Below are positions 610-19,637 of a stretch of 19,637 bases of DNA, piece after piece. The notes beneath the pieces were generated by a model. That model saw only the letters and a program-made list of their open reading frames with translations, searched no databases and had not been told where the DNA came from. Both the position numbers and the translations under genes were made by a program. Each line of letters begins with the position of its first letter. The stretch's first letter is position 1. Origin of the DNA: Bdellovibrionales bacterium (GTDB lineage Bacteria; Bdellovibrionota; Bdellovibrionia; Bdellovibrionales; JAMPXM01); assembly GCA_043739185.1 (NCBI GenBank), contig JAYUEN010000104.1, positions 1-19,637 of the forward strand, written 5' to 3'.

Positions 610-619
610 ATTAGTCAGT

Positions 620-2450: not shown

Positions 2451-2476
2451 AGCTTCGTTCCTAAGCTAGCTAGGCA

Positions 2477-3469: not shown

Positions 3470-3639
3470 GAGCTTCTCCCTTTTAAGTTTATTGCAGCAA
3501 GGCATAAGCATTAAAGCCTTAAATTTGCTTAAGCAAGTATTTCCGCATACTTTCTGCAATTAAATAAGAAGACGCCTTCATTTTGATTTCAAAAGCAATT
3601 GGGAGGCTCCTATGAGAGTTTTATAGATGTTTCTTTTAT

Positions 3640-3668
3640 TTGACCTGCCCCAATCTTTTCCCTAGATT
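3640..3668 (+). promoter_or_regulatory. Sigma70-like promoter of lplA
   Basis: TTGACC-N17-TAGATT ends 9 nt before GTG 3678 and is overlapped by an 8-bp inverted repeat. Confidence 0.55.
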
Positions 3669-3677
3669 GGGCCCATT

Positions 3678-4697
3678 GTGACCAAGCTCAAAGTCTTCTT
3701 ATCAGATAGTTTGAATCCCCATCTCAATCTTGCAACTGAAGAATGGATTTTTCATAATCTCGACCCCTCTTCACAAATATTATTTTTGTGGAGAAATGAA
3801 GAAACTGTCGTTATTGGTCGAAATCAAAATCCGTGGTCCGAATGCAATCTTGCTAAAATGAAGGACGATGATGTTCATTTAGCCAGAAGAACCACCGGTG
3901 GCGGCGCGGTTTTTCACGATCTCGGAAATACCAATTTTACTTTCTTATCACCCAAAGAAAATTATCGTAGAGAAAATAATATCGAAATTATTTTAGCCGC
4001 ACTTCGAAATTTTGGAATAAACGGATCGGCATCCGGCAGAAATGATTTGCTACTTGAAACTTCAGATGGCCCTCGCAAATTTAGCGGCAGCGCTTATCGG
4101 GAAAAAAAGGATCGCGCCTTTCACCATGGTACTCTACTGATAAACGCAGATCTAAGCCGCCTGGGGCAATATCTCACTCCGAATCCAAAAAAGCTTCAGG
4201 CCAAAGGAAAAGAGTCGGTACGCGCCCGCGTAGCAAATTTAAATGAGGTATCAGCTCAATTGAAACACGAAGTTCTGACTTCAGCCATAGTTGATTCTTT
4301 TGAAGAGTTTTATAAAGCCAAAGCTGAAATTGAAGAACTCAATATAACCAGCCTCAAAAATATTCCGGCATTGAAAGAGCAGTTTGAAAGTCTCAGCTCA
4401 TTTGATTGGCTCTATGGGCAGACGATGGCCTTCAATCAGCAGATGAATGAATATTTGTCTTTGGGCTTTTTTGAATTTCAATTTCAAGTTGAAAATGCAA
4501 TCATTCAAAACCTTAAGATCTTTAGCGATTGTTTAAATCCCAATTTAATTGATGAGCTCAGCACTGCGTTTAAAGAGCGGCCCTATCGCGCCGAAAGCGT
4601 ACGAGAAATTTGTCATCCATTAAAGACAAAGTATTCTGAAATGAGTGTAGGGATTTTTGAATTAGAAAACTGGCTCATTACGCAAATCGAGATTTGA
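3678..4697 (+). CDS. lplA: Lipoate-protein ligase A
   Basis: NLATEE, LFLWRN, VVIGRNQNPWSECN, LARRTTGGGAVFHDLGNTNFTF, GRNDL, KFSGSAY, HHGTLL and KLQAKG.ESVRARVANL, followed by the C-terminal LplA domain. Confidence 0.95.
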   Translation: MTKLKVFLSDSLNPHLNLATEEWIFHNLDPSSQILFLWRNEETVVIGRNQNPWSECNLAKMKDDDVHLARRTTGGGAVFHDLGNTNFTFLSPKENYRRENNIEIILAALRNFGINGSASGRNDLLLETSDGPRKFSGSAYREKKDRAFHHGTLLINADLSRLGQYLTPNPKKLQAKGKESVRARVANLNEVSAQLKHEVLTSAIVDSFEEFYKAKAEIEELNITSLKNIPALKEQFESLSSFDWLYGQTMAFNQQMNEYLSLGFFEFQFQVENAIIQNLKIFSDCLNPNLIDELSTAFKERPYRAESVREICHPLKTKYSEMSVGIFELENWLITQIEI

Positions 4698-4707
4698 GTT
4701 AGGGCCC

Positions 4708-5124
4708 TTAGGCCGCACTGTGCTCGGTCAAATCCTTACCAGATTTCACAATAATTCTTAAGACATTGCTTCTTGAAACGATGCCTTGAAGACGGCCGTT
4801 GCCGTCCATAATAATAATTCGGTGAACGGGCTTGGCAATAAACAGACGATATACATCAATAAAATTGTGAGATACTGAAAGGCTTATAAGTTGTTCGGTC
4901 TTCACTAAATGGCTCAAACAGCTCCCTATTTTTCGATCCAAAAGTTTTGCTGCCGCCATTTTCAAAAGGTCGCCTTCGCTGATGACACTGATTACTCGAT
5001 TATTTGCATCGATTACTGGTGCGCCACTAATTTTATGCAAGGTTAGCACTTCAATGGCTTCTCGCACGCTCATTTCTAAGTTGACAGTGTGTACATCCGA
5101 AGTCATAAATTTCTTTACATTCAT
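4708..5124 (-). CDS. CBS domain pair protein
   Basis: VKKFMT.DV.TV, ISGAPVID...VISVISEGDLL and VHRIIIMD.NGRLQGIVSRSNVLR define two CBS repeats. Confidence 0.92.
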   Translation of the reverse strand: MNVKKFMTSDVHTVNLEMSVREAIEVLTLHKISGAPVIDANNRVISVISEGDLLKMAAAKLLDRKIGSCLSHLVKTEQLISLSVSHNFIDVYRLFIAKPVHRIIIMDGNGRLQGIVSRSNVLRIIVKSGKDLTEHSAA

Positions 5125-5150
5125 TTTCGCCTCAGAATTTTAGTTTATTA

Positions 5151-5177
5151 ATTATCGAAAATTAAGATTTCGATAAT
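5151..5177. promoter_or_regulatory. Perfect 10-bp inverted repeat (operator or leader hairpin) upstream of the CBS gene
   Basis: ATTATCGAAA-N7-TTTCGATAAT. Confidence 0.45.
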
Positions 5178-5191
5178 ATTTACATAAGACT

Positions 5192-5218
5192 TTATCGGCA
5201 TTTCATTAAGAAGCCCAA
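5192..5218 (-). promoter_or_regulatory. Putative sigma28 (FliA) promoter of the CBS gene
   Basis: Exact -10 GCCGATAA on the minus strand (5192-5199). The -35 is poor (TTGGG-N14). Confidence 0.45.
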
Positions 5219-5600
5219 GATCCAAATTGAAAAAAAACTAAATAGTTCTGTATCAATTTGAGACATAGAGAGGCAGCTCAATTATAAAGACAGAGCCTTT
5301 ACTTATACTGCTCTTAACAGATATTTTTCCTTGGTGAGCCTCAAAATACGTTTTGAAATAAAGAGTCCCAGGCCCAAACCACTTTTTTTAATATTTTGAT
5401 TCGCTTGGCCTAGTTTTTTGCCGCTTTTTGGCCGCAATTATTCTTTCTAAATAAAATTCTAACTCCTCAATTTTTAGCATATACCGCTTAGGATGCAAAT
5501 TCTTCTAAATGAACTTGAGACCCACTGACAAGGGCCTTATCCCAAAAAGTCCCAAGTCCTCGATGCAATTCAACCTCAATTGAAGCTCGGTTGATTTAGG

Positions 5601-5616
5601 TTGGCTTAATCTTTGC
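5601..5616 (+). promoter_or_regulatory. Putative sigma54 (-24/-12) promoter
   Basis: TTGGCTTAATCTTTGC has exact GG-N10-GC spacing and lies about 50 nt upstream of ATG 5665, after a long intergenic region. Confidence 0.6.
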
Positions 5617-5664
5617 GAGTTCAATGGCGATATCAAAAATGAAGCTTTTTAAAGGAGTACTGCT

Positions 5665-6030
5665 ATGAAAAGGATTTTATATACAGTCATTGCTGCGCTA
5701 TGCATCGATTCGGTCGCAATTGCAGATCAACAGGCAGAGAAAATTTTGGGTTATACTGCGACTCAAACCGGCGTGATATTTCAAGTTAGCTCAGGTGGCT
5801 GCACTCATCCTGAAGACTTTGTCATGCAGGTCAATTTAGGCCAAGTTGCAGAAGTCACACTTTTGCGTATTAGGCCCGATACATGTTATTCTTATATTCC
5901 GACGGGAATCAAAATGAAAATTCCCTATTCAAAAATTGGGATTGAACCCGGCCAGGCCTTCATTGTAAAAAATCAAAATGGTGTGGTTCGTGGCTGGCTT
6001 TGGAAGGATCAAGATCTTTTGAGCCAATAA
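5665..6030 (+). CDS. Small secreted hypothetical protein (FQVSSGGCT...PDTC; likely one disulfide)
   Basis: 121-aa ORF with AAAGGAG RBS, a signal peptide ending VAIA and two Cys in the mature part. Confidence 0.8.
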   Translation: MKRILYTVIAALCIDSVAIADQQAEKILGYTATQTGVIFQVSSGGCTHPEDFVMQVNLGQVAEVTLLRIRPDTCYSYIPTGIKMKIPYSKIGIEPGQAFIVKNQNGVVRGWLWKDQDLLSQ

Positions 6031-6105
6031 AAGACGCCCTGGTCAATTTACTTGCCGCCGTTGAAAATAAAACTACAATATAAAGGAGCCTACCTGGGAG
6101 CCCCA

Positions 6106-6813
6106 ATGCCTACTGGATTCATATTTCAGCAACTTTTTGAGCACACCTCTTCAACTTATACCTATATTATTGCCGATCAAAGCACGCGTGAAGCTGCGAT
6201 CATTGATCCAGTTCTTGAAACACATGAGCGCGATCTCAAGCTCATTCAAGAGCTTAAATTGATATTGAAATTTTCCCTTGAAACTCATCTTCATGCAGAC
6301 CATATCACTGGCTCTGGCGAGATGAGAAAAGCTTTAAACTGTCAAACCGCAATCAGTAGTGAAGCGAACGTAGAATGCGTTGATCTGTTACTTAAAGATG
6401 GTCAAGAGTTGTCCTTAGGAAAGAAGAAAATAAAAGTGCTCGGGACTCCGGGACATACAAATACTTGTTTGAGTTTTCTTTTTGAAGGCATGATTTTTAC
6501 TGGTGACGCCTTGCTCATTAGAGGTTGCGGCAGAACAGACTTTCAACAGGGCTCATCTGAGAAACTTTTTAAGAGTGTGCACGAAAAACTTTTCACTCTG
6601 CCCGATGAGACTCTGGTTTATCCGGCACATGACTATAAAGGCTATACTTCATCTAGCGTCGGTGATGAAAAACGCTTAAATCCTCGACTGGGCGGCAGCC
6701 AATCTTTAGAGAGCTTTTCAAAAATAATGTCTGAACTTAAACTTGATAATCCAAAGAAAATTCATGAAGCAATACCGGCAAATTTAGCCTGCGGTCAAAA
6801 ACTAGGCCCTTAA
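6106..6813 (+). CDS. MBL-fold metallohydrolase, ETHE1-like persulfide dioxygenase
   Basis: FQQLFE..SSTYTY, IIDPV, ETHLHADHITG, TPGHT, FTGDALLIRGCGRTDFQQG, VYPAHDYKG, EKRLNPRL and AIPANLACG. RBS GGAG precedes ATG 6106. Confidence 0.92.
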   Translation: MPTGFIFQQLFEHTSSTYTYIIADQSTREAAIIDPVLETHERDLKLIQELKLILKFSLETHLHADHITGSGEMRKALNCQTAISSEANVECVDLLLKDGQELSLGKKKIKVLGTPGHTNTCLSFLFEGMIFTGDALLIRGCGRTDFQQGSSEKLFKSVHEKLFTLPDETLVYPAHDYKGYTSSSVGDEKRLNPRLGGSQSLESFSKIMSELKLDNPKKIHEAIPANLACGQKLGP

Positions 6814-6840
6814 GGAAAGCTGAGCACTAAGGGCCTTTTG
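6804..6840 (+). terminator. Possible intrinsic terminator between convergent genes
   Basis: AGGCCCTTA-N15-TAAGGGCCT is followed by T-rich sequence, but the loop is long. Confidence 0.4.
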
Positions 6841-6847
6841 TCTGTTT

Positions 6848-7969
6848 CTAAAATGCCACTCGCTCGGTTAATTTTTCAGTTCCTGAAGCATCGTAATACT
6901 TACTCGCGGTACGAAAAAAACGATACCGAATACGATAATCTTGACCCACCTCAAACTTACCGTCAATTTTAACCTTAAGCTGGTTGTTTAGCATAGTTGT
7001 TGTCACCCGAGTTGCATCAAGTGTTTGACAACCTAAAAACCAATTCGAGCAAAGTTCGTAATAAAGCATTAATTTTGAGCTCGCTTCGTTGGTCGCAAGA
7101 TAATTAGCATTGATTGCCAAGTCTCCTTCGAAGCCTGCATTGGTTCGCACTAAACTTCCCGAAATAGCATCTTCAGGAATATCAACTTTTCTTCGCTCTG
7201 CCACCAGCTGAATTTTGGCTGCTCCATTGCGATTGTCAGTAACCTGAGCCGTATAGTAATTGAATTCAGACGCGCGCTCGACTCGAGCAGAATTTACATC
7301 GTATGAAAGTATTATGTTAAAATTATCTTGCTCAAAACTTTGCAGAACCGGATTTAAAATTTGTATTGAATAATGTCGCGGCAAAATGCCCGCGGGCTCA
7401 TGAGCAATAATATTTTTTCGAACTTGGCGAGTTACATTATTCATGCGGCAATTTGAATCACTCCAAAAGCCAAGCGCATGCGCATTGTCAGAGCCAAATT
7501 GAATGCTTATCAAATCATAAAAATGAGTCGTATAGCCCATTTGCAAGAGTGCACTTTCAGCATTTCGCATTTGTTGTTCAAACTCAGACCAATAACGCGG
7601 CCGAAACATAAAGAGCCCGTGACGAACAATTAACAATGCCGATTCATGATCCATGCCTTTTATGGCCACACTCAAAGCCTGGGCTCGGACCTCTTCACTT
7701 GCGCTTAATTCATTCCAATAGTTCTTCCAGTCGCCACTACTTTGATCTACCGGTACATCTAGGCAAAGTGGCACATTAACGATTTCTTCGGTCACCACTT
7801 CACGCACAATTTCTCTTTGAAGCTTAAACTGCACTTCAAAGTCATTGAAGCGTGAATTAAACGCATCGACGTGAAGCGGATATCGTATAGCTTCAGCGCT
7901 TATTTCTCCGGGATATGAGTAGGCATTTAAAGAAATTCCCAATAGGCATACGGCAAGAAATGTTTTCAT
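6848..7969 (-). CDS. Secreted hypothetical protein
   Basis: Long ORF with GGAGT RBS before ATG 7969 and signal peptide MKTFLAVCLLGISLNAYS. It is beta-rich with a central helical insert. Confidence 0.82.
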   Translation of the reverse strand: MKTFLAVCLLGISLNAYSYPGEISAEAIRYPLHVDAFNSRFNDFEVQFKLQREIVREVVTEEIVNVPLCLDVPVDQSSGDWKNYWNELSASEEVRAQALSVAIKGMDHESALLIVRHGLFMFRPRYWSEFEQQMRNAESALLQMGYTTHFYDLISIQFGSDNAHALGFWSDSNCRMNNVTRQVRKNIIAHEPAGILPRHYSIQILNPVLQSFEQDNFNIILSYDVNSARVERASEFNYYTAQVTDNRNGAAKIQLVAERRKVDIPEDAISGSLVRTNAGFEGDLAINANYLATNEASSKLMLYYELCSNWFLGCQTLDATRVTTTMLNNQLKVKIDGKFEVGQDYRIRYRFFRTASKYYDASGTEKLTERVAF

Positions 7970-8008
7970 ATTGACTCCATTCAAGTTAAAACTTTTTGAT
8001 GCAGCTTT

Positions 8009-8038
8009 AACATAGAAATAGAGTCACAAAACTGTCAA
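8009..8038 (-). promoter_or_regulatory. Sigma70-like promoter of the 6848-7969 gene
   Basis: TTGACA-N18-TATGTT on the minus strand. Confidence 0.4.
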
Positions 8039-8039
8039 A

Positions 8040-9722
8040 TCAAATGCTGTCCCAACCACTATTATCGTCATCGTGGCTGCCTTCGCCTGATGCCTTTTTG
8101 ATTGGCATATGAGTCGTAAATGAATGCGACTCTTTTTTTAGCTTTAAAATATTTCCCGCTTGTGCGGAACCTTGCTCTCCGGGAGTTTTTCTTAGTGACT
8201 CCGAAGATTTTGAATTCTTAGCACCATCGACAATTGAAAATAACTCTTTGACTTCGATTTTAAGACTATCTGATAGATCGAACAAAATCGAACTGGCCGA
8301 GGCAGACATTTCAGCGCTTGCAGCATTTGATTGGGTTGACTTGTTTAGGGCTTCAACGCTGACACTAATTTGTCTAATTCCGCTGTTCTGTTCTTTTGAT
8401 GCACGATAAATTTGTTCACTACTGGCTAAAATTTGTTTTGTTGACGAAGTGACCTCTGCCATCTTGGCAGCCGCTTCGTGACAGAATGCAAAACCACTCT
8501 CGACTCTTTTTTTGGTATCGAGACTGACTTCTTGTGCAGATTTAATTGCGGTTTTGACAATGGCAAAAATTTCAATCGCAGATTTTCCGCTCATCTTTGC
8601 AAGGTTTCCTACTTCTTGAGCCACCACTCCAAAACCTCTTCCGTGCTCACCAGCGCGCTCTGCTTCGACCGACGCATTAAAGGATAGCAATTTAGTTTGA
8701 AAAACAATTTCATCAATTAAATCTGTTTTCTCACCAATCTCTTCAATGATTTTGGCAAGTTCTTCGACCTTGGCATTTGATTTTTTAATTTCACTCATAG
8801 ATTCCATCAAGGATCGAATCGTCTCATTGGTTTCGGCGGTCAGAGAAATCACAGATCTTGCAAGTTTGACGCTATCTTCGGTATTCTTTAGATTGCTTTC
8901 GACCATCCCGGTAATTTCTTGAAGTGAAGCCGAGCTCTCTTCTAATGCGGCAGCTTGTTCTTGTGAGGCGCTCGACAATTCTTGGGATGAAACCGCCAGT
9001 TGCTGCGATGATTGCGCCACCTCAACTGAAGAGCGATCTACTTTTTGGGTCACATTCTGCAATTTTTTTGAAAGACTAAATGCGATTGTCATCCCAAAAC
9101 ACCATAAAAACAAAATCGAAAGCAAAGCCACTAGCTGCATATTTTGCTCGGCTCGCTCGGCGCCTTCTTTAGATTCAATATTAAGCAAGCCAACCCGTCC
9201 CTCAAAGTTTTTTGAAATGGCGGCAAAGGATTCATCCATACGTTCAACTTCAGGTAGTAATTTTCTTAAAATGAGCTCGCGCACCCAACGATCTGATTCT
9301 GGCAAATTGTCTTTGTAACGGACCAAAATAGCGGCCAAAGTGGGTGCAAGCAGCGTCGATCTGTGTGAAATATCATCGAGCTGCTCTAAAGATTTAGCTT
9401 CGAGTCCAACACCTTTAAGCCGCGCGAGCTGTTGCGTGAAATCGATATAGGCATTTTCTGTTAAACTTATTCGCTTCAAACGAAAGCTCGCATCACCTTC
9501 GGCCAATAATCCCGAAGTCAAAAGTCTTACCATTTCATTCAAGCGTGTGGTTGCGGCCCCGATGGATTGCGCCTCGGGAATCTTCATCGAGATAAAACTA
9601 TTTATTGTTTTCGTTTGTTTATCTCGAATATCAAAAGCTGCAAATAATGAAATCTCGAGCGCCACTGAGCCGATCATGAGAATGATCAAAAGTTTCAATT
9701 TAAGTCCACGTAACCAACCCAT
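8040..9722 (-). CDS. Methyl-accepting chemotaxis protein
   Basis: Two TM segments flank a helical (4HB-like) periplasmic domain. The hairpin tip reads [40 protein letters not shown], the methylation helices include [18 protein letters not shown], and the C-terminus is GWDSI. RBS AAGGAG precedes ATG 9722. Confidence 0.95.
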
Positions 9723-9758
9723 GACTCGCTCCTTAAAAAGTGAAAGAATCTGCAATTC

Positions 9759-9786
9759 TCTTCGGCTTCATAAAGACATCGCTTAA
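9759..9786 (-). promoter_or_regulatory. Putative sigma28 (FliA) promoter of the MCP
   Basis: Minus strand TAAG-N15-GCCGAAGA versus consensus TAAA-N15-GCCGATAA. MCPs are typical FliA targets. Confidence 0.65.
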
Positions 9787-9914
9787 GACCTGAAATTACT
9801 AAATTTTTACTGAGAACTCGACCCGAAATGGCGAATCGCATCCCGACCAAGGTCGCAAAAAACTGCCGAGAGTCTAGTTTTCAAAAAACAAAACAATTTA
9901 AGTGCCTAGAATCT

Positions 9915-9942
9915 TTGAGCTAGGTGCAAATTTAACCGATAG
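9915..9942 (+). promoter_or_regulatory. Possible sigma28-like promoter of the cNMP-ATPase gene
   Basis: TTGAG-N15-ACCGATAG ends 7 nt before ATG 9950, which has no SD. A second candidate, CCAAG-N13-GCCGAGAG, lies at 9847-9872. Confidence 0.4.
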
Positions 9943-9949
9943 AAATATT

Positions 9950-12601
9950 ATGGGTGAAGCACCGATTGATCCTTCAATCATTCAACTTTTAAAATCAAGT
10001 CATCTTTTTGGTGACGCTGATGATGCTGTATTGAATTTGGTTGCGTCGCAACTCAAAGCGTTTTCATACAAAAAAGGCGAACCCATTATTTTAGAAAATG
10101 AAATTAGCGATCAAGTATATTTTATTAAAACGGGTGCAGTCGAAATCACCAAATACCGCCCCGAACTACAGCAAGTCACGCGTGTGGCTATGCTTTTGCC
10201 GGGCTCGCACTTTTCTGAATTTTCAGTAATCAACCACAGCTATAAATCTGCCTCCGCTTTTGCTTTCGAAGATACAGAACTTTATCAAATGCTCGGTGAT
10301 ACCTTTTTAAAAATTCTTTTGAAAACGCCCGCCCTTTCCTACAACTTGGCAATGATTCTGGCTGATTTGAACTTAAATTTTTCGCAAAGCCACACCTATA
10401 TTGAGTATTTTGATCCAGCCTCAATAAGCGTGAGTTCAGAGATTGCAAGTTTTTTCCCGCCCAATCTCTGGAAGAAATTTGGTGCTTTGCCCCTTCGGTA
10501 TTATACAAACAATATTTTGTTTGCAGCGAAAGACCCTTATCGCACAGAATTCTCTCAGTTTTGTCAGACCCAGCTGGCCAAGATTCAAGTTAATGTCGTC
10601 TTGATTGGCGAAGAAGATTTTGAATTGACTGAAAAAAAATTGAAACTCCTATATGCCGGCGGTCCGAGCAAAACGAAAAAATCCATTGAAAAATTTGAAG
10701 AAGAAGATATTAAAACCTCCCTAACTAAATCTCACTATTTTGATTCGATGAATCCCCAAGTCTTTGAACAATTGGCAGGAGTTGCAGAAAAAGTAACTTA
10801 TCAAGCTGGTGAAATTATTTACTCTCCAGGAGAAGTCAGTGAAACTTTTTATTTGGTGCAATCTGGCTCTGTGGAACTCTCAAAGCAAATCAATTCAAGT
10901 TCAAATTACTGCCAACTCATTGGCATCGGACAACGCCAAAGTCTCTCAGAAGTTTCTCTACTAACCAATACTCCTCATTCACACATCGCCAGGGCTTCAC
11001 AAACTACAAATATCATTAAATTGAAAAAAAATGTCTTCATGCAGCTCTTAAAATCAGGTGCATTTTGTTTAAATGTTTCAAAGGTTTTGGCAAAACGACT
11101 TGAGTTTGTTACCAGATTCAGTGGCGTGAAATTTGATACCAATCGCGAAGCGCCAAAAATGCAAGATGCGCTTAAAATTCTCTCAAAAGAGGTAATGCTC
11201 GAGCACCAGCTTATTCCATTAAAAGTAAATAATGAAGAAGTGACTCTTGGAGTTGTCAATCCTAACAGTGAATCGATTTGCTTTGTGGCCGCCCGATACT
11301 TGAGGGGATATCGTATTAATTTAGAAGCAATCCCTTTTGAAAATTTTAAAAAGTGGATGAGCCTGGGGGAAGCAGTGATGGCCTCAAATGGTCTGCCACT
11401 GAATACGAAGAATATCTCGATGGCCAAAACAGAAGGTACTGTTTTCGAACTCAATCGAATTTTAGTTGAAGGCTATGACTCGAGAGCCAGCGATGTGCAC
11501 TTTGAACCTTCTAATGACGGCTATTGTGTGCGCTACCGAATTGACGGAGTGATGATGGAAGTGGCCAATAAAATTCCCAAAGAAATTGGCATTGAATTGG
11601 TTTCACGAGTGAAGGTCCTTAGCCAACTCGATATTGCCAACCATATGGTGCCGCAAGATGGTCAACTCAAACTAGTTGCTGGCGACACACATATCACGGC
11701 GCGAGTTTCGACCGTACCAACCAAACATGGTGAAAACGCTGTATTGAGACTCATTCGAAACCGCAGCTCCACACAGCCCTTGAGTATGCTAGTTCCTGAC
11801 ATCTATTCAATTAAAATTCTAAAAGCTATAGCCCGTGCGAAACAGGGATTGTTTTTGGTCACTGGGCCAACCGGCTCCGGAAAAACCACAACACTCTATT
11901 CGTTGATTGCAGAACTCAATCATGTAGATGTCAAAATCATATCGCTTGAAGATCCCGTAGAGCTTGAAATTCCGGGTACCACACAAATTGAAATAAATGA
12001 AAAATCCGGAATGAGTTTCGCAAAGGCCTTGAAGAGTACACTCAGACAAGATCCTGATGTTGTAATGGTCGGAGAAATCCGTGATGAAGAGTCTGCTAAA
12101 ATTGTTTTTGAAGCCGCCATGAGTGGGCACTTGGTCATTTCAACTCTGCATACCAATAGCTCTTTTGGAATTCGCAATCGACTTCATGATCTCGGAATTC
12201 CTGCGGGAGTAGCGGCGAGTGGAATTATTGGCGCCATGGCTCAGCGCTTGGCCCGCGCCCTTTGCAAAAAGTGCAGTCGCCTCAGACCTACTACCGCAAT
12301 CGAAAAAGAATTTTTCGCAAAACGTCTTGGTCCGAATCAGGTCCCTTTAGAATTGAAGGCGGCGGTTGGATGCTCCGCCTGCAATGAGACTGGCTATCTA
12401 GGTCGAATTCCAATAATTGAAATCTGGAAGAAGACCCGAGAAATTGAAGAACTCATTTCAAGCAATGCAAAAACCGAAGACCTAATTCATGCAGCAAAAA
12501 AGTCAGGCTATATCAGCATTGAAGATTTTGGCCTAAAAATGGTTCTGTGCGGCCTCACCAGCATTGAAGAGGCCGAGCGCGTGACTGCCGGATATACTTA
12601 A
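9950..12601 (+). CDS. GspE/PilB-family traffic ATPase fused to two cyclic-nucleotide-binding (cNMP) domains
   Basis: C-terminal half: ASDVHFEP, VRYRIDG, LDIA...PQDG, RVST.PT.HGE.AVLRL, Walker A GPTGSGKTTT, LEDPVE, LRQDPDVVMVGEIRD, GHLVISTLHTN and the Zn motif CKKC...CSAC. N-terminal half: two cNMP folds (YKKGEPII...VYFIKTGAVEI; YQAGEIIY..GE....FYLVQSGSVEL), each followed by an N1D-like segment. Start is ATG 9950, or GTG 9902. Confidence 0.9.
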   Translation: MGEAPIDPSIIQLLKSSHLFGDADDAVLNLVASQLKAFSYKKGEPIILENEISDQVYFIKTGAVEITKYRPELQQVTRVAMLLPGSHFSEFSVINHSYKSASAFAFEDTELYQMLGDTFLKILLKTPALSYNLAMILADLNLNFSQSHTYIEYFDPASISVSSEIASFFPPNLWKKFGALPLRYYTNNILFAAKDPYRTEFSQFCQTQLAKIQVNVVLIGEEDFELTEKKLKLLYAGGPSKTKKSIEKFEEEDIKTSLTKSHYFDSMNPQVFEQLAGVAEKVTYQAGEIIYSPGEVSETFYLVQSGSVELSKQINSSSNYCQLIGIGQRQSLSEVSLLTNTPHSHIARASQTTNIIKLKKNVFMQLLKSGAFCLNVSKVLAKRLEFVTRFSGVKFDTNREAPKMQDALKILSKEVMLEHQLIPLKVNNEEVTLGVVNPNSESICFVAARYLRGYRINLEAIPFENFKKWMSLGEAVMASNGLPLNTKNISMAKTEGTVFELNRILVEGYDSRASDVHFEPSNDGYCVRYRIDGVMMEVANKIPKEIGIELVSRVKVLSQLDIANHMVPQDGQLKLVAGDTHITARVSTVPTKHGENAVLRLIRNRSSTQPLSMLVPDIYSIKILKAIARAKQGLFLVTGPTGSGKTTTLYSLIAELNHVDVKIISLEDPVELEIPGTTQIEINEKSGMSFAKALKSTLRQDPDVVMVGEIRDEESAKIVFEAAMSGHLVISTLHTNSSFGIRNRLHDLGIPAGVAASGIIGAMAQRLARALCKKCSRLRPTTAIEKEFFAKRLGPNQVPLELKAAVGCSACNETGYLGRIPIIEIWKKTREIEELISSNAKTEDLIHAAKKSGYISIEDFGLKMVLCGLTSIEEAERVTAGYT

Positions 12602-12981
12602 GGCTGATCCTTCGGTGATAAACAAATTCCGCTGAGCTTTCCATCGTGAGTTTCGAGAAAACCCCGCAAACCTCCACCCAAATAAACCAGAGAAAAGTTA
12701 TAGTGAGCACTCTTATACTGACTGGCATCGATGCCCATAAAACTTCTTGTTAAAAGCTCGTAGGTAAAAAGCGGATTTGGCACCACCGCTCCGGTTCGAA
12801 CGAAAAGCTCTTTTGTCCCGCTCAAGAAATTTGTCATCGAAACAACTGCGTATTGAGCTCCCACCAAAATATTGCCATCTTCACTCTTCATTGGTCCACA
12901 ATTCACCAAGACATTCTCTGCCCTTGAAAAGCTGGGCAAAGCAACGGCAGTAAACATTATCGCAATAAGAAAATTTTTCAT
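12598..12981 (-). CDS. Small secreted hypothetical protein
   Basis: 127-aa ORF with GGGAGAG RBS, a signal peptide ending SRA and one Cys near each end of the mature chain. Confidence 0.8.
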   Translation of the reverse strand: MKNFLIAIMFTAVALPSFSRAENVLVNCGPMKSEDGNILVGAQYAVVSMTNFLSGTKELFVRTGAVVPNPLFTYELLTRSFMGIDASQYKSAHYNFSLVYLGGGLRGFLETHDGKLSGICLSPKDQP

Positions 12982-13161
12982 ATGCTCTCCCTTTTTTTTT
13001 AAAAAAACCAGTAGAGAAAAAGACTATATTTAGACGTTCCGTAACGCCCCTTTTCTACAGAAGTTTGTTCTTTCACACAATTCATAACGCCATTAAATTT
13101 GGGTTAAGGACTTATACCTAAACAAGTGGCATAATTGAGCACTGTGGATTTTGAATATGCT

Positions 13162-13587
13162 TTACATTGCCAGGGCGATTACGGCCTGTTGTATTTCTTT
13201 CGTATATGCAAAAAACTCAATAGCAGATTTTAATGGAATCCAAAAGGTCCCATGATGGTAGTCAGCATCCGATACAGGTTTTGGATCGTGATATTCTTCG
13301 GCCAGAATTCCTCGGTAAAAAAAAGTTTTACAAGAATATTGAACTTGGTCCCAGTGATGTGAGTACGACTTAACGACTTCTGAATTTGGATCAATGATTA
13401 AGCGATAACTAGTCTCTTCAAGAGCCTCTCGCCGGGCGCACGCCCATGGCTTTTCGCCCGCCTCAATTTTCCCACCCGGCAAAAACCAGTACACTTGCTT
13501 TGACGAGGGATCAACGCCTTTAAACACCAGTAATTTATCTTGATATAGGCAAACAACTGAGGCTCTTTCTCGATATGCTTTTTTCAT
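13162..13587 (-). CDS. NUDIX hydrolase
   Basis: WFLPGGKIEAGEKPWACARREALEETSY matches the Nudix box GX5EX7REUXEEXGU, with the terminal G replaced by S. Confidence 0.92.
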   Translation of the reverse strand: MKKAYRERASVVCLYQDKLLVFKGVDPSSKQVYWFLPGGKIEAGEKPWACARREALEETSYRLIIDPNSEVVKSYSHHWDQVQYSCKTFFYRGILAEEYHDPKPVSDADYHHGTFWIPLKSAIEFFAYTKEIQQAVIALAM

Positions 13588-13772
13588 CTCTTAAACTCGT
13601 GATTGGATAGTTCTCATTAGTAGGCCTGTTCCTTTTTGTCTGTATTCAATGGAACGATATTATTCCAAAACCTAGACCAGGTCACTCCCTAGAATCTTGA
13701 CAAAAAAATGGCTCAAGCTTTCAATGAATCTGACTGTTTATTTGCCAATTAATTATTAACAGGGGGGCTTTC

Positions 13773-14492
13773 TTGAAAAAAATAGTTTTAGCTTTAATGC
13801 TTGTAACTTCCTATGCCTTTGCGCAAGGTCCAAGCGATCAAATTTTATCTGGTGATGTCATTTGCACAGACGGACAATCGAATCTCTCAGACCAAAGCTT
13901 TTCGCCAAATGCACAACCTGATGCACAAATAATTGAGGCACCTCGCCCAGGTCCGCAACCAGGTCCTTGGCCACATCCCCAACCAGCGCCACATCCTCAA
14001 CCACCACCTCATCCGCAACCGCCACCACATCCGCAACCGCCACCACATCCAGGACCATGGCCACATCCTCAGCCGCCACCGGTTCCGCATCCTGGTCCGT
14101 GGCCACAGCCGCATCCAGGACCATGGCCACAACCAAGACCTTATCCACATCCATATCCTGTGCCAGGACCATGGCCAAGACCTTATCCACATCCAATTCC
14201 GCCGCCAATTCCTCAGCCAATTGGGATTGTCACGATCTATCCAAATTTCAATTGTCTCGATAATTTGATGCCAGAAAATGCTTTTAACTTAGCAATGGAT
14301 GCAGCCAATTGTGATTCAATGAATCCGGACAGAATTGAATTAGATGCCTATTTGTGTTTTGAAGTAGAGCAATCTATTGATCGTGTGAAGGCCAATGAAA
14401 TCATGAGCCTTGCTACCACGCCAATGGGCTTAGATGACATACGAACTATTGAGCATGCTTCTAGTATTTTGTATTATCGCTGCGAATTATAA
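13773..14492 (+). CDS. Secreted Pro/His-rich repeat protein with Cys-containing C-terminal domain
   Basis: TTG start with AGGGGGG RBS and signal peptide MKKIVLALMLVTSYAFA. It has PHPQPP/PGPW/PRPYP repeats and is followed by a terminator. Confidence 0.85.
   Translation: MKKIVLALMLVTSYAFAQGPSDQILSGDVICTDGQSNLSDQSFSPNAQPDAQIIEAPRPGPQPGPWPHPQPAPHPQPPPHPQPPPHPQPPPHPGPWPHPQPPPVPHPGPWPQPHPGPWPQPRPYPHPYPVPGPWPRPYPHPIPPPIPQPIGIVTIYPNFNCLDNLMPENAFNLAMDAANCDSMNPDRIELDAYLCFEVEQSIDRVKANEIMSLATTPMGLDDIRTIEHASSILYYRCEL
13941..14219 (+). repeat. Coding degenerate tandem repeats (6-nt/18-nt periodicity)
   Basis: CCAGGACCATGGCCA occurs at 14049, 14115 and 14163. CCAAGACCTTATCCACATCCA occurs at 14133 and 14175. 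CATCCGCAACCGCCACCA is repeated in tandem. Confidence 0.9.
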
Positions 14493-14507
14493 AAGAATCT
14501 AATTTCG

Positions 14508-14541
14508 AAAGGCGGAGGTCAGTAGCCTCCGCCTTTTTTTT
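14508..14541 (+). terminator. Rho-independent terminator
   Basis: GGCGGAGG-tcagtag-CCTCCGCC followed by T8, just after stop 14492. Confidence 0.92.
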
Positions 14542-14575
14542 GAAAAAAAACCAATGATAGAAAGCTCAAACTAGA

Positions 14576-14866
14576 ATGAAAGCAATGGCCATTTTCCTCT
14601 TATTATTCAGCTCAGTCTCTGCACTTGCTCATAAAGAAAATGCCGGATGTAAAAAAATTCATGAAGCTTGTAGCGAAGCAAATCAAACCGGCAAAGATGC
14701 CTGGCACTGCGCCCACAATCTTATGAAGGGCGAAAAGGTCGAGGGAATAAACAAAGATTTAATTGAAGCGATCAAGGATTGTAAGAGCGCAAAAGGACTA
14801 CATCATCAAAAAGAAACCGCAGCTGATTCAGCCGCGGCTCATGATTCAAAATCAGAATCTAAATAA
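14576..14866 (+). CDS. Small secreted Cys/His-containing hypothetical protein
   Basis: 96-aa ORF with a signal peptide ending ALA and four Cys (CKKIHEAC...C...C). There is no CXXCH motif. Confidence 0.75.
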   Translation: MKAMAIFLLLFSSVSALAHKENAGCKKIHEACSEANQTGKDAWHCAHNLMKGEKVEGINKDLIEAIKDCKSAKGLHHQKETAADSAAAHDSKSESK

Positions 14867-15307
14867 TTACATGATATGAACTGGAAATGAGCAATACAAA
14901 GGTAGACTTGGCTCACTTGCTAATTGCAAATTAAGTTTTGCTTTTGAGTTTGGAACGAAAGTGAATACATTTGAATTTTGTGGTTGTGGGTTCAATTGCT
15001 GATCGATAACTAATTTAAAATATTCGCCAGCTGAACGTGTATCGACAATCGTTGTCTTTTGGCCCTTGGTAGTCATTTTCACTTCGATTGGTCCGGCGAT
15101 TTGCGTATTACCTACAACACCACCATGATAAATATTTGCAATATACTGAGGTGTTCCTTCGGTACTTGTAATTTGAATTGAATATCCATTTACCAAAGTC
15201 GTTGAACAAGAAACCACAGTGTCTACGCGGCCTGGTACGAAATTCGCGAAAGCGCTGCTAACTGAAAGTAGCGTAAGTGCTGCAAAAGCCATTGATAATT
15301 TTTTCAT
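14867..15307 (-). CDS. Small secreted hypothetical protein
   Basis: 146-aa ORF with AGGGG RBS, a signal peptide ending AFA and one Cys near each end of the mature chain. Confidence 0.82.
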   Translation of the reverse strand: MKKLSMAFAALTLLSVSSAFANFVPGRVDTVVSCSTTLVNGYSIQITSTEGTPQYIANIYHGGVVGNTQIAGPIEVKMTTKGQKTTIVDTRSAGEYFKLVIDQQLNPQPQNSNVFTFVPNSKAKLNLQLASEPSLPLYCSFPVHIM

Positions 15308-15399
15308 AAAAACCCCTATTAATTATTACTTGATTCAAATTCTTGAGCGACTCAGATTTGCGCCGCCTGCAGAATCAAGTATTGATAATGGGTCCACAA

Positions 15400-15416
15400 A
15401 GCAGAAAGCGTGCCAG
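15400..15416 (-). promoter_or_regulatory. Sigma54 (-24/-12) promoter of the 14867-15307 gene
   Basis: Minus strand CTGGCACGCTTTCTGCT is close to consensus YTGGCACG-N4-TTGCW. Confidence 0.8.
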
Positions 15417-15578
15417 CACGGTTTTCAGAAGATTTTGTTTATTCCTCTAGCAAAGCAGGCCCTGATTTCAAGAAAGATTGCTGATCAATGCCAAAGTGGG
15501 ATTTCTTCTGAAAGAAATTCATCGAAATCTGGGTCCACTTAGGCACTAGCAATGAGGGCGCTGAATAAGGGACAGCTA

Positions 15579-17411
15579 TCAAATCAATCTTTTTTTGGTA
15601 TTCATCCATTCGGTCATGACTTTTTCAAGTACATCCATCGGAAGAGCTCCGTGGCGCAAAAGTTCATCATGAAATTCGCGTACATCAAATTTTTCGCCCA
15701 ATGCGTCCTTTGCCCGCGTTCTTAACTCCAAAAATTTGAGTTGTCCCACTTTATATGCGAGCGCTTGACCCGGCCATGTAACATAGCGATCAATTTCAAC
15801 TTCAACTTCTAACTGAGATTTCGGAAGCAGAGTTTTCATATAATCAATAGCCTTTTGCCGTGGCCAAGACTTAGCGTGCATGCCGGTATCTACTACCAAG
15901 CGAACCGCCCGCCACATTTCATAAGTGAGCTCTCCGTACTTTGAATACGGGTCTTTGTAAAATCCCATTTCTTCACCCAAGCGCTCAGCATAGAGTCCCC
16001 AGCCTTCAATAAATGCCGTATAGCCACCCTCGGTTCGAAACTTCGGAATGTCTTTTAGCTCCTGAGCAATTGCGATTTGAAAGTGATGGCCCGGTACAGA
16101 TTCATGCATGGTAAGAGCTTCCATCGCCCATTTTGGCCGTGCATTTAAATCATATGTATTGGCGGTAAAGAATCCGGCTCGGCCAGACTCCAAACTTCCT
16201 TGTTCATAATAAGCGCCTGGGCTCTCTTTGGCCTTAAACTCTGGCATTTCACGAACTCCATAACTCAAGCGAGGCAGAGTCTTAAATAATTTTGGAAGTT
16301 CTGGATCAATCTTTTTCGCGATGCTTCGATAAGAATCAAGCAGTTCGTCTTTTTGTTTGAAATAAAATTTCGCATCGGTCAGCAAATATTTATTGAATTC
16401 TTCGCTACTTCCTTTGAATTTCATTTCTTCGCGAAGCTTCGTCATTTCTCCTGAAATTCTAGCAACTTCTTTTAGACCCAGATCGTGAAGTTGATCTGGA
16501 GTCAAATCAGTTGTCGTCTGTGTTTTCACATTATAAGCATACCAAGCTTTTCCGTTTGGCATTTCACTTAGCGCAATGTTTTCACGCGCACCAGGAATGT
16601 ATTCATCAACCACAAACTTTTTGAGCTCCCGCAGACTAGGATAAACTTTTGTTCTTATAGCTTCTTTTGCAAGAGCCTGAATATTTTGTTTTTCTGCTGT
16701 CGACAATGACGAATTGATTTCTTTGAAAACTTCATAGTAAGGAGAGCTTTCGATATTTTCAGTTAGCAAATGATCAAACTGCGCGGGCACTGATTTTAAA
16801 AACATCTTCACCGCAGTGATTTTCTTTTTTAAGCCTTCTTTTAACAATACTTCCTCTTGGCTGATGAGGCTAGGATAGGCATCCAATCGTGATATCATAT
16901 TTTGATAATCTTTAAAACTAGCAGCTGGCATGGTAACAAGTATATCAGCCAAAGCTTGATGAGGCCCGCCAAGCTGATCAAGTACCAAATACTCTGCCCC
17001 AAATTTTTGACCTTCAATTGAAACCTCAAGATTGCGCTTTGCCAGATCGAAATTGATTTTATCTTCACCCTTCAATTGATTCGCCGAAATTCCTCTTAAG
17101 ATTTCAAGCTGACAAAAGCTTTCTTTTTTTCGCCGAGCTATGGCTTCAAGTGACTGATCTGTCCAGCGGTCATTTTGACCTGGCTCTCCCGCATAGGTCG
17201 CCCATTCTGGATACTCATGCATCAGATACTTCCATTGAGTTGCGAGAAAGCGATTTAGCTTGTCGTGTGCACTCCCGTTGATTACCGAATTTTTAAGTTG
17301 CTCACATATTGTGGTATTTGCCTCTGCCCGCGCAGTGTTTGCGGCACTAGATAAAACAATTGAGAGACCTATGAGCACAGAAACCAGAAAGTGAGAAAGA
17401 AATGCTTTCAT
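15579..17411 (-). CDS. DUF885 family protein (putative exported metallopeptidase)
   Basis: PEWATYAG, LTPDQLHDLGLKEV, HESVPGHHFQ, AFIEGWGLYAE, MWRAVRLVVDTGMH, EIDRY..WPGQALAYKVG and FDVREFHD. Signal peptide and GGAG RBS are present. Confidence 0.93.
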   Translation of the reverse strand: MKAFLSHFLVSVLIGLSIVLSSAANTARAEANTTICEQLKNSVINGSAHDKLNRFLATQWKYLMHEYPEWATYAGEPGQNDRWTDQSLEAIARRKKESFCQLEILRGISANQLKGEDKINFDLAKRNLEVSIEGQKFGAEYLVLDQLGGPHQALADILVTMPAASFKDYQNMISRLDAYPSLISQEEVLLKEGLKKKITAVKMFLKSVPAQFDHLLTENIESSPYYEVFKEINSSLSTAEKQNIQALAKEAIRTKVYPSLRELKKFVVDEYIPGARENIALSEMPNGKAWYAYNVKTQTTTDLTPDQLHDLGLKEVARISGEMTKLREEMKFKGSSEEFNKYLLTDAKFYFKQKDELLDSYRSIAKKIDPELPKLFKTLPRLSYGVREMPEFKAKESPGAYYEQGSLESGRAGFFTANTYDLNARPKWAMEALTMHESVPGHHFQIAIAQELKDIPKFRTEGGYTAFIEGWGLYAERLGEEMGFYKDPYSKYGELTYEMWRAVRLVVDTGMHAKSWPRQKAIDYMKTLLPKSQLEVEVEIDRYVTWPGQALAYKVGQLKFLELRTRAKDALGEKFDVREFHDELLRHGALPMDVLEKVMTEWMNTKKRLI

Positions 17412-17489
17412 TTAATTATACTCCAATTCATTGAAAGGGACTTTGTTTTTCAAAAGCCTAATGAGGACATCACAACTTGTTAGGAGAGG

Positions 17490-18488
17490 TCAATTGTCAA
17501 AGTCTTGATTTTTTCGTTTACGCCTTTTGCCATGGGCTTGAGGCTTTGAATGGCTCGGACCATTCTGCCGTGGTGAAGCTCTATGAAGATTGTTTAAATG
17601 TTGCGGGCCTTGATTTCTTGGCGCCATATTTTGTGAGTTGAAACGGCCCCCATTTTGACTCGGCAGGGCTTGGGGCGGACGCTGTCTTTGCTCTGGTCTT
17701 TGCTCTGGTCTTTGCATTTCATGCCGACTAACGCCGTTCAAATTAGGCGGTCGAATGATGCGAGAGTGATTCGGAAAATTCGACCATACAATCGACCCAG
17801 TATGAAAAATTGGATTTTTAAGTTCCGAGCTCGAAATCACCTGAATACTTGGCGAAACCGCCGTAATAAATTTTTGGTTTTCAAGCGAATTAGGTGCAAA
17901 GGCATTAGGCCCTGACAAAACCACAATTTGCTTTTGGTAAGCCACATACTGCCGAGTTGCCAAAACGTAACTGCTCTCATCATCAGTTGCCGCTCGTTCT
18001 GGTGGTGGCGCAAACTGCTCAGGAGGTGTCACCTCTGCTAAATTTGCAACATTCGGAAGCTCACCGGTTTCAATGAGCTCTTGGTACTTTCGAAGCTGTT
18101 CGGTAAACGCTTGACTCGCAAGCTCCTGAATGTCTTTTGGTTGAAGGCTTTTTTTCGCGCTCTCGCAAATTTGAAATTCCAAACCAATTTTAATATAGGA
18201 GTAAAATATTCCCTTCTCAATTTCCTCACTATAGCGATCCTCAATGCGCGTGCCTTTTGGAATGATCGAACATTCATTCGCCAAATCCTCAAGAGCTAAG
18301 CCTTCTGCTTTGAATTGCGCTCGGTCGACGCTGCCTGAGCTCGCCTTTGCCACATACACCAAATAACCGCTGTCGACGCTTCTGGCGGGCTGATGAATCC
18401 AAGATGGAACTTCAGATACGACTGGGGCTTGAGCACAACTCCAAAGTATAAATTGAAAAAAACAGATTAGAGTGAAATTCATCTTCAT
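17490..18488 (-). CDS. Putative lipoprotein (LPP20-like N-domain) with disordered Pro/Gln/Arg-rich tail
   Basis: Lipobox-like LWSC followed by VPSW...YLVYVA.....AQFKAEGLALEDLA, with a low-complexity C-terminus. Confidence 0.65.
   Translation of the reverse strand: MKMNFTLICFFQFILWSCAQAPVVSEVPSWIHQPARSVDSGYLVYVAKASSGSVDRAQFKAEGLALEDLANECSIIPKGTRIEDRYSEEIEKGIFYSYIKIGLEFQICESAKKSLQPKDIQELASQAFTEQLRKYQELIETGELPNVANLAEVTPPEQFAPPPERAATDDESSYVLATRQYVAYQKQIVVLSGPNAFAPNSLENQKFITAVSPSIQVISSSELKNPIFHTGSIVWSNFPNHSRIIRPPNLNGVSRHEMQRPEQRPEQRQRPPQALPSQNGGRFNSQNMAPRNQGPQHLNNLHRASPRQNGPSHSKPQAHGKRRKRKNQDFDN
17684..17715 (-). repeat. 12-bp coding tandem repeat (QRPE)
   Basis: GTCTTTGCTCTG x2 followed by GTCTTTGC. 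Confidence 0.8.
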
Positions 18489-18670
18489 TTCTCAAGCCTA
18501 ACGTGAGAATAAAATTTGATCAAGATATGCGCGCGCTTTGCCGCTTATGAGAATGGTGAATAACTAATAAGAAATCCCATCAATGCAGTTGACATTATGC
18601 CAGGCCAACTCTATTTACAGACTTCTTTTTAGCCCTTCATTCTAGTTTTTCACCTTTCTTAAGGAGTCTT

Positions 18671-19637
18671 ATGCTCGGAAGCTTTGGCATTCTTTTAAGC
18701 TTGTGCCTGCTGATGTTTATGGCTTACCGGGGATTTTCGGTAATCTTTTTTGCACCGGTTTTTGCTTTGCTTGCTGCTGCCATCGCTGGCCTTTCAATTT
18801 TGCCAACCTATACTGAGATTTTTTTGCCGCAGTTAGCAGGTTACGTAAAAGTTTATTTTCCATTTTTTCTGTTGGGCGCGGTTTTCGGAAAATTGATGGA
18901 GCAGTCGGGTTCAGCCGACTCAATTGCTCATTCAATCACTTCAAAATTGGGCACCAAGCACGCTATGCTCGCGGTGGTTTTATCCTGTGCCGTTTTAACT
19001 TACGGCGGGGTCAGCTTGTTCGTTGTGGCTTTTGCGGTTTATCCTTTTGCAAATTCAATTTTCAAAGACGCCGATATTCCAAAACGATTGTTGCCTCCCA
19101 CCATAGCTCTTGGCGCTTTTACCTTTACCATGGATGCCCTTCCCGGAACTCCACAAATTCAAAACTCCATTCCCATGAAGTTTTTTAATACCGACCTCTA
19201 CGCCGCCCCCGTCTTCGGCTTGATTGGTGCCATTCTCATCTTTACTGGCGGCATGATTTATCTCGAATCGCAAAGACGAAAATTAAAATCGATGGGCGAG
19301 GGCTACGGCAAATCACTGGCAAGTGAGGCGACTTCTCTAAAGAAAAAAGAGCTCCCGCCAATTTACTTAGCCGCTTTGCCGCTCCTATGCGTATTGCTGG
19401 TGACTCTCATTCTACAAAAAGTGGTCTTTACTCATTGGAAGATCGCCGAATGGGCTACTCTTGCTCCCTATAAAATGAATCCAGAAACGCTTCAAGGGAC
19501 CATGAATAATTGGGCACTCATGATTGGTTTGGTGAGTGGCATTCTCCTTACTTCTATGTTGAATTTTAAGAGAATGAAAACCAGCTTCGCTGCCGCTATT
19601 AGTGCGGGTGCCACCGGCTCGCTATTAGCTGTGATGA
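18671..19637 (+). CDS. GntP-family permease, 3-hydroxybutyrate-permease-like subgroup, 3'-partial
   Basis: Not in the ORF track because it has no stop in the window. AAGGAG RBS precedes ATG 18671. It translates as MLGSFGILLSLCLLMFMAYRGFSVIFFAP...FLLGAVFGKLME.SG.A..IA...LTYGGVSLFVVAFAVYP...IPKRLLPPTIALGAFTFTMDALPGTPQIQN.IP. Confidence 0.9.
   Translation, partial: MLGSFGILLSLCLLMFMAYRGFSVIFFAPVFALLAAAIAGLSILPTYTEIFLPQLAGYVKVYFPFFLLGAVFGKLMEQSGSADSIAHSITSKLGTKHAMLAVVLSCAVLTYGGVSLFVVAFAVYPFANSIFKDADIPKRLLPPTIALGAFTFTMDALPGTPQIQNSIPMKFFNTDLYAAPVFGLIGAILIFTGGMIYLESQRRKLKSMGEGYGKSLASEATSLKKKELPPIYLAALPLLCVLLVTLILQKVVFTHWKIAEWATLAPYKMNPETLQGTMNNWALMIGLVSGILLTSMLNFKRMKTSFAAAISAGATGSLLAVM

Follow-up and report, generated by a model that had tools for sequence, protein, structure and literature searches.

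The assembly ATPases of the PilB/GspE/MshE family (structures 4KSS, 4PHT, 5TSG and 3JC8) share a motor made of the N2D and a C-terminal domain with Walker A and B motifs, Asp and His boxes and four cysteines, and the MshEN_C subdomain precedes the N2D. The messenger described as a direct ligand of extension ATPases is cyclic di-GMP (c-di-GMP), while cAMP acts through transcription; how the N1D relays to motor and stator that a ligand has bound was named as an open question (PMC11656802). The c-di-GMP binding site is the four-helix subdomain MshEN_N (Wang 2016, PMC5013675). Sensor fusions and tandem MshEN domains are already in print as GAF- and REC-MshEN-T2SSE and (MshEN)2-4-T2SSE (Wang 2016 Supplementary Table 4, PMC5013675). 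Here we analysed a contig of a Bdellovibrionales bacterium (JAYUEN010000104.1, positions 1 to 19,637; this whole stretch of 19,637 nucleotides is referred to as the window) which encodes, at 9950..12601 on the plus strand, an ATPase of the PilB/GspE family. In this protein of 883 amino acids a fold for cyclic nucleotide monophosphates (cNMP) takes the place of MshEN_N, and the resulting module of cNMP and MshEN_C is present twice.

The Desulfotalea protein DP2226 (MshEN-T2SSE-cNMPbind) differs from this N-terminal replacement in that it retains MshEN and has its cNMP domain at the C-terminus (Wang 2016 Supplementary Table 4, PMC5013675). The same table contains neither an N-terminal cNMP replacement nor a tandem cNMP-MshEN_C. 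A full-text search, mainly of open papers and with the supplement of Wang 2016 as the only supplement, found no paper on the tandem architecture, in agreement with an earlier note on this DNA whose author knew of no characterised protein of this kind. The tandem protein is real and uncharacterised.

Domain architecture and relatives

We took ATG 9950 as the start and not the upstream GTG 9902 because three close homologues are also 883 amino acids long. Pfam assigned two stretches of the protein to cNMP_binding (E 5e-28), two to MshEN (E 7e-13) and residues 501-877 to T2SSE (E 3e-108), which gives the order cNMP–MshEN_C–cNMP–MshEN_C–N2D–ATPase. The cNMP-fold domain 1 with its C-helix (residues 8-147, PF00027) lies at 9971..10390 and is followed by MshEN_C copy 1, the alpha/beta subdomain of an N1D (10397..10657, PF05157). 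The cNMP-fold domain 2 (residues 254-390, PF00027) occupies 10709..11119, and MshEN_C copy 2 (11123..11380, PF05157) adjoins the motor. The latter consists of the N2D (11432..11764), with PDB matches to GspE and PilB, and the C-terminal ATPase domain (11777..12598), in which we located the Walker A motif at 11864-11887, the Asp box, Walker B, the His box and the tetra-cysteine site at 12263-12382. All these features are on the plus strand. The earlier note had proposed this layout, with a Walker A motif beginning at 11864 and an internal duplication, and our analysis bore it out. In an HHalign comparison the two modules matched each other across 222 columns (probability 100%, E 8.5e-42). Moreover, cNMP1 and cNMP2 form sister clades (0.94, FastTree), which fits an internal duplication, although long branches may attract.

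Both MshEN-type stretches match only residues 60-140 of PilB, that is the alpha/beta MshEN_C (HHalign 99.0% and 98.3%), and HHalign gave no alignment of either to PilB 1-55, the four-helix c-di-GMP bundle. Copy 1 is the least conserved domain (mean column conservation 0.41 in 62 proteins); a single-sequence PDB search with it gave no real match, and its identity comes from Pfam and HHalign. The relaxed MshEN motif of Wang 2016 was present in the host's own PilB and MshE-like ATPase, which served as controls, and was found in 0 of 30 tandem proteins and 0 of 80 proteins with a single module. A c-di-GMP receptor is ruled out by the absence of this motif, and the expected lack of an RLGxxL-type motif was confirmed. 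As had also been supposed, the sensor was swapped, since the cNMP domain occupies the exact position of MshEN_N.

The Walker A lysine, Asp box, Walker B, His box and the four cysteines are kept in 58-60 of the 62 relatives; the exceptions are 1-3 gaps from partial sequences and one degenerate member (P0204). The cysteines C772, C775, C808 and C811 were found in 59 of 62 proteins, the other three being gaps. Thus, the motor is intact, as the earlier note had stated, and judged by these motifs it is very probably an active ATPase. P0204 is degenerate in its Walker A, its Walker B and its His box and retains the pocket of cNMP1; this member is likely a pseudo-ATPase. In a comparison with the nearest relative (L001) all six domains showed a dN of 0.09-0.19 with dS >2 or saturated. 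Every domain is therefore under purifying selection, and together with the 62 relatives this rules out a pseudogene or a chance fusion.

The N1D (MshEN_C) ahead of the N2D is, like the motor motifs and the tetra-cysteine site, a feature that the protein shares with assembly ATPases of the PilB/GspE (PulE) type. In contrast to PilB, GspE and MshE, however, it lacks the MshEN_N bundle with its motif, carries a cNMP fold instead in a doubled module, forms its own clade (100/100) and is encoded outside a pilus operon. As an orthologue of PilB or GspE it would be expected beside pilC or within a gsp cluster; no such gene was found in 24 loci. Its scores also stay below the curated NCBIfam cut-offs for PilB (TIGR02538, 420 of 676 bits), GspE (TIGR02533, 396 of 630 bits) and TfpB (NF053534, 341 of 850 bits). 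A recent duplicate of the host's PilB, GspE or MshE is ruled out by the identity of 32-40% and the long branch of the protein.

A homology search returned 13 full-length homologues. In the GTDB species set 19 of 79 returned loci belonged to the family, all in metagenome-assembled genomes of Bdellovibrionota; 17 of them had both modules and 2 were cut by contig ends. About 30 further representatives were added, and the tandem set used here comprised 62 non-redundant proteins (64 collected, two duplicates dropped). A search of 401 Bdellovibrionota genomes gave ten matches, namely nine tandem proteins, including that of our genome and spread over five families, and one single-module protein. Two His-type members (described below) from this search had been missed by the patterns used on the GTDB species set. 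The distribution of the tandem clade is patchy and, going by the named loci, likely limited to Bdellovibrionota.

The single-module protein, a cNMP-MshEN_C-ATPase of 664 amino acids in genome G119, was found in Atlas clusters of 339, 57, 1307 and 169 members in which Myxococcota were commonest. A hidden Markov model search returned 112 proteins of this architecture, three of them fragments of tandem proteins; a scan of 1/64 parts of a metagenome collection for single-module neighbourhoods found no member. The earlier note had suspected uncharacterised cNMP-GspE fusions in databases, and they do exist as a large single-module family with canonical pockets. This family is far larger than the tandem one, and the replacement of the bundle by a cNMP domain predates the tandem form and is more widespread. 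In a maximum likelihood tree of 38 ATPase domains the nine tandem proteins (100/100) and the 15 single-module proteins (100/99) each formed a clade, and the two clades were sisters with weak support (89/62). In a FastTree analysis of 116 rows they were not joined.

The searches also returned about 50 proteins of about 1000 amino acids with two GspE/PilB ATPase domains per chain (P0052-P0140, P0190-P0208), two of which were labelled at their source as Candidatus Falkowbacteria and Minisyncoccia. Besides, some clusters in the ESM Atlas combine cNMP and MshEN but list no ATPase domain (protein lengths 221, 300 and 467 amino acids; Myxococcota, Hydrogenedentota); these may be stand-alone sensor-docking modules or fragments.

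The predicted pair of cNMP folds and its pockets

A model of residues 6-476 was predicted from 19 sequences (predicted local distance difference test, pLDDT, 86; predicted TM score, pTM, 0.80); a pTM this high is unlikely for four independent domains. The model of the whole chain, poor over the ATPase part, was not used. Both cNMP domains show the beta-barrel fold with hinge and C-helix (PF00027 twice; VIA Z up to 17.9), and domain 1 was modelled with a pLDDT of mostly 80-94 and matched CRP-family chains at a VIA Z of 17. The top VIA matches were the CRP-family chains Clr (7pza), GlxR (3r6s) and Mtb CRP (4a2u) with Z of 17-18. Each of these single chains aligned about 145 residues at 2.2-2.5 Å over a model range from 4 to 388 or beyond. 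As the ranges reach the C-helix of module 2, this helix would lie beside barrel 1, although they give first and last residues only. Other VIA rows (4ev0) align inside module 1 alone, and the tandem arrangements of PKA and PKG fit badly (rmsd 11-20 Å). The pTM and the VIA ranges point to a pairing of the two C-helices, and the two cNMP domains quite probably form a single-chain pseudo-dimer. The block of four sensor domains is predicted to be rigid. A cNMP barrel with a long C-helix, here with predicted pairing, is likewise found in the dimers of Clr, GlxR and Mtb CRP and in Bd1971 of Bdellovibrio, whose cassette spacing is the same (PMC6717892). Unlike these dimers, the tandem protein is one asymmetric chain with a non-canonical cassette, and its output is a motor docking domain instead of DNA binding or an EAL domain.

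We compared the pockets in a joint alignment of 80 single-module domains with both modules of the 62 tandem proteins, in which, as against solved structures, the register of cassette 1 was confirmed. In CRP we presumed G71, A84, P110 and L124 as reference positions and a partner-subunit role for S128. Further reference residues were E72, R82, S83, R123, T127 and S128 of CRP and R108, L109 and N113 at the C-helix of Bd1971 (Cadby 2019, PMC6717892). The single-module domains hardly vary at four key positions of the cassette, Gly, Glu, Arg and Ala (G80, E80, R77 and A76 of 80). The phosphate-binding cassette 1 of our protein (residues 88-105, 10211..10264), the likely ligand site, has Ser89 for Gly, keeps Glu90, has Lys99 for Arg and keeps Ser100 and Ala101. 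Across the 62 proteins these four positions hold S43/A17/G2, E60, K33/H19/R8/T2 and A31/T16/G13. Cassette 2 (residues 332-349, 10943..10996) is degenerate, with Ser333, Glu334, His343 for Arg and His345 for Ala, and the family shows G36/S19, E45, H36/S10 (R in one) and L24/H20/F5/Y3 at the same positions. Therefore, neither domain has the canonical cassette Gly-Glu...Arg-(Ser/Thr/Ala)-Ala, a point that had escaped the earlier note.

Pocket 1 nevertheless retains the Glu in 60, a basic residue or His in 60 and Ser or Thr in 58 of 62 proteins. Its cassette is conserved above the ATPase C-terminal domain (mean column conservation 0.71 and 0.62), and cassette 2 reaches 0.51. Since the phosphate-binding Arg is absent from 61 of 62 proteins and a bulky residue stands at the conserved Ala, we judged pocket 2 as degenerate and probably without nucleotide binding. 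The C-helices behave the other way round. At the positions of Bd1971 R108, L109 and N113 the single-module domains carry R77, L67 and N52/S14/T9 (of 80), module 1 has L43, N37 and variable residues, and module 2 has R44, L48 and N32/T13/S7/G10 (of 62). In our protein the capping Arg is replaced by Leu140 in domain 1, whereas C-helix 2 (11057..11119), which is predicted to pack on domain 1, carries Arg383, Leu384 and Asn/Thr/Ser388. Thus, the binding residues are split, the cassette being kept in module 1 and the capping helix in module 2. Single-module proteins, in contrast, unite a canonical cassette and a full capping helix in their one module; it is these features that the tandem form divides and alters.

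From the residues, only pocket 1 appears to have a usable cassette in either geometry of the pair, and one composite site per subunit is likely. The twelve sensor domains per hexamer of the earlier note were not supported as working sensors, as pocket 2 lacks the Arg in 61 of 62 proteins and the domains are predicted as one pseudo-dimer. Direct gating by a cyclic nucleotide, which had also been inferred, is made uncertain by Lys or His in place of the Arg of pocket 1 in 52 of 62 proteins.

Genomic context and proposed mechanism

The gene is an orphan. None of the 19 open reading frames scanned in the window matched a pilin, platform or secretin family of Pfam, and neither a machine gene nor a prepilin motif was found there, so that the earlier remark on missing pilin, PilC/GspF and secretin genes proved right. 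We compared 40 open reading frames from the host's type II secretion system (T2SS), type IVa pilus (T4aP), MSHA-like and Tad clusters with 24 tandem-gene loci (339 kb, several of them short). No T2SS, T4aP or MSHA gene was found; apart from ABC ATPases the only match was a Tad platform gene in locus L005, at a distance of about 7 kb from the ATPase gene. The prepilin motif, which fired on the host's own pilins, was absent from all 24 loci. Neither a conserved operon nor a cognate cyclase was found beside the gene, and no neighbour was conserved beyond close kin. The single-module gene whose context was examined (L090) is an orphan, too.

The host genome has complete clusters for a T2SS (gspC-L, with gspE in the gsp cluster), a T4aP (pilB-pilT-pilC), an MSHA-like system and Tad; the first two are on contigs different from that of the tandem gene. 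All of five other carriers encode at least two further GspE/PilB-type ATPases. The orphan position and the machine clusters of the host suggest an extra, orphan motor. Action in trans, as proposed before, is plausible for an orphan gene in genomes with their own PilB and GspE, and we regard it as rather probable that the protein acts on a type IV filament machine. The T4aP has about an even chance of being that machine, the T2SS is an unlikely partner and the MSHA-like system a still less likely one. A precedent for an orphan second extension motor in trans is TfpB of A. baylyi. This extension ATPase is phylogenetically distinct, is encoded away from the pilB-pilC synteny and serves the same pilus as PilB (Ellison 2021, PMC8213720). 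In contrast to the tandem protein, no cNMP domain is described for TfpB in the part of that paper covered here (PMC8213720).

Two other host genes deserve mention. A long-branch GspE-like ATPase of 397 amino acids without N1D (G000:C14:1657-2850) lies in an operon that resembles a conjugative element. The gene in the GspL position of the T2SS (G000:C155:8922-10574) scores as PilM_2 (E 2e-20), i.e. as a PilM-like stator.

Our overall best reading, which we hold tentatively, is that the protein is an accessory extension motor whose two cNMP folds form a pseudo-dimer with one composite, high-threshold site for cAMP or cGMP per subunit. The machine served by the intact ATPase would be a type IV filament system encoded at another locus, with the T4aP as the foremost candidate. 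The two cNMP folds would form a single-chain, CRP-like pair with one composite ligand site which answers cAMP or cGMP only at high concentration. Ligand at pocket 1 would shift the paired C-helices and with them the attached MshEN_C domains. MshEN_C copy 2 would then dock on a stator of the PilM/GspL type, and the hexamer, with six sites and not twelve, would drive pilin assembly. Copy 2 is the likely docking domain; it carries the family-specific RYL..YR motif (residues 449-455, 11294..11314), without counterpart in copy 1 and conserved at R449 (56/61), Y450 (56/60), L451 (52/60) and R455 (52/61). We take the RYL-bearing helix of MshEN_C to be the stator contact helix. A contact between N1D and stator has been inferred from 4PHT and 2BH1 (PMC11656802).

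Eight of the 62 members have the canonical Arg in pocket 1. In two of them (L009 and L014) a gene for a K+ channel of the cyclic-nucleotide-gated type, with Ion_trans and a canonical cNMP cassette, begins 3-7 bp after the tandem ATPase gene (L009:10660-11913, L014:10698-11951). In a tree built without the pocket columns seven of the eight nest among proteins with Lys, and one branch separates the 19 His-type proteins from the 41 others (0.81; root unsure).

Within the window, a gene for a methyl-accepting chemotaxis protein (8040-9755, minus strand) lies divergent from the ATPase gene at a distance of 194 bp and was not seen beside it in other loci. On the other side, 12598-13587 (minus strand) holds a NUDIX gene and a reading frame of 127 amino acids that has no Pfam match and overlaps the stop of the ATPase gene; both lie between the ATPase and a Pro-rich gene and are absent there in the near relatives L001 and L004. 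The Pro-rich gene (13773-14492, plus strand) encodes a secreted-looking protein with an 18/24-nt array of Pro-His-Pro-Gln repeats at 13941-14212, in place of which the counterpart in L004 shows a stretch rich in Gly. No Rfam RNA, including riboswitches, was found in the window, and promoter and terminator matches were at chance level only.

Alternative readings and significance

Several observations speak against the mechanism proposed here. Pocket 1 lacks the canonical Gly in 60 and the Arg in 54 of 62 proteins, while single-module domains keep them in 80 and 77 of 80. A change from Arg to Lys weakens cAMP binding in PKA RIalpha, where R333K raised the activation constant from 166 to >1500 nM (PMC2791020). 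Moreover, 19 members have His at the Arg position, mostly with Thr at the Ala position. As His is common in pocket 2 too, the Arg was probably lost before the duplication. C-helix 1 has no capping Arg of its own. Regarding the fold, the pTM of 0.80 is a value without a control, and one VIA row, that of Bd1971 (6hq5, chain 5-115 on model 30-385), is suggestive of the ordinary geometry of CRP, where Arg383 would act on pocket 2 and not on pocket 1. The ATPase tree does not link the tandem clade to PilB, GspE or MshE; its union with the host's PilB was not rejected (p-AU 0.08). In addition, extension ATPases are mostly system-specific (PMC11656802). Class III cyclases were found in six of six carriers tested, but cyclases are common and their presence says little; it permits a response to cAMP or cGMP and does not favour it. 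Finally, L009 and L014 are sister sequences, and the link to the channel is thus one event. We think that pocket 1 binds a regulatory ligand with fair probability, and cAMP or cGMP is our foremost, if tentative, candidate.

One alternative, which we consider unlikely, is a ligand other than cAMP or cGMP in the same motor with the same pseudo-dimer. Here duplication would have split the binding residues over two cNMP folds, and the remaining site would have been rewired for another small molecule; candidates are nucleotides or nucleosides that are not cyclic, other cyclic nucleotides, dinucleotides and anionic metabolites. Some bacteria of predatory lineages would then possess a second pilus motor that an undescribed ligand switches directly by way of an asymmetric CRP-like pair and that answers another signal than c-di-GMP or cAMP. 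The pocket changes run through the family systematically, with strong conservation (Ser89/Ala, Ser92 60/62, Ser102 61/62, Arg78 53/62), and do not resemble random decay, cassette 1 is conserved above the ATPase, and, by structure titles, the same fold holds other ligands in NtcA (2-oxoglutarate), trypanosome PKA-R (inosine, guanosine) and PycTIR (cUMP). However, K, H, R and T at position 99 would be odd for a new specific ligand, the Arg recurs in a nested clade beside a canonical cNMP channel, and a gene for a cognate synthase is not among the conserved neighbours.

A comparably doubtful reading leaves both pockets without a ligand. The tandem block would then be a fixed structural spacer or a protein-binding surface, and expression or a protein partner would control the motor. 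The cNMP-homology domains of KCNH channels offer a comparison for such a block. In most members the canonical Gly/Arg pair is missing from either cassette, the occurrence of His in place of the Arg in each module suggests an early loss, and the Arg-to-Lys effect in PKA (PMC2791020) is in line with a weakened site. Ligand-free domains, however, usually lose the polar residues of the pocket, which pocket 1 retains better than the ATPase retains its columns; the decay pattern is that of pocket 2 (0.71 versus 0.51), and the partner-helix Asn/Thr is retained only on that helix which in CRP geometry would face pocket 1.

A regulator in place of an independent motor, which would join PilB/GspE hexamers, sequester the stator or use its ATPase for signalling, is improbable. 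In its favour, the gene never lies beside a platform gene, a block of 470 residues might hinder docking, contacts between ATPases have been reported (PMC11656802) and P0204 has a dead Walker A; against it, nearly every member retains the residues of the catalytic motifs, the arginine-finger region and the zinc site, as a working motor should.

B. bacteriovorus needs type IV pili for predation (PMC4237445). A core role of the tandem motor in predation is unlikely, because the gene is present in about 2% of the sampled genomes (9/401) and patchy. The tandem and single-module families form a pair that can serve as a test system, in which the canonical single-module proteins would be positive controls for cAMP and cGMP and the His, Lys and Arg variants of the tandem proteins a natural series of pocket retuning. 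If the accessory motor proposed here is true, its built-in sensor of the cNMP fold, which bears on the question of how the N1D relays a bound ligand, would be a direct route for another signal to the motor.

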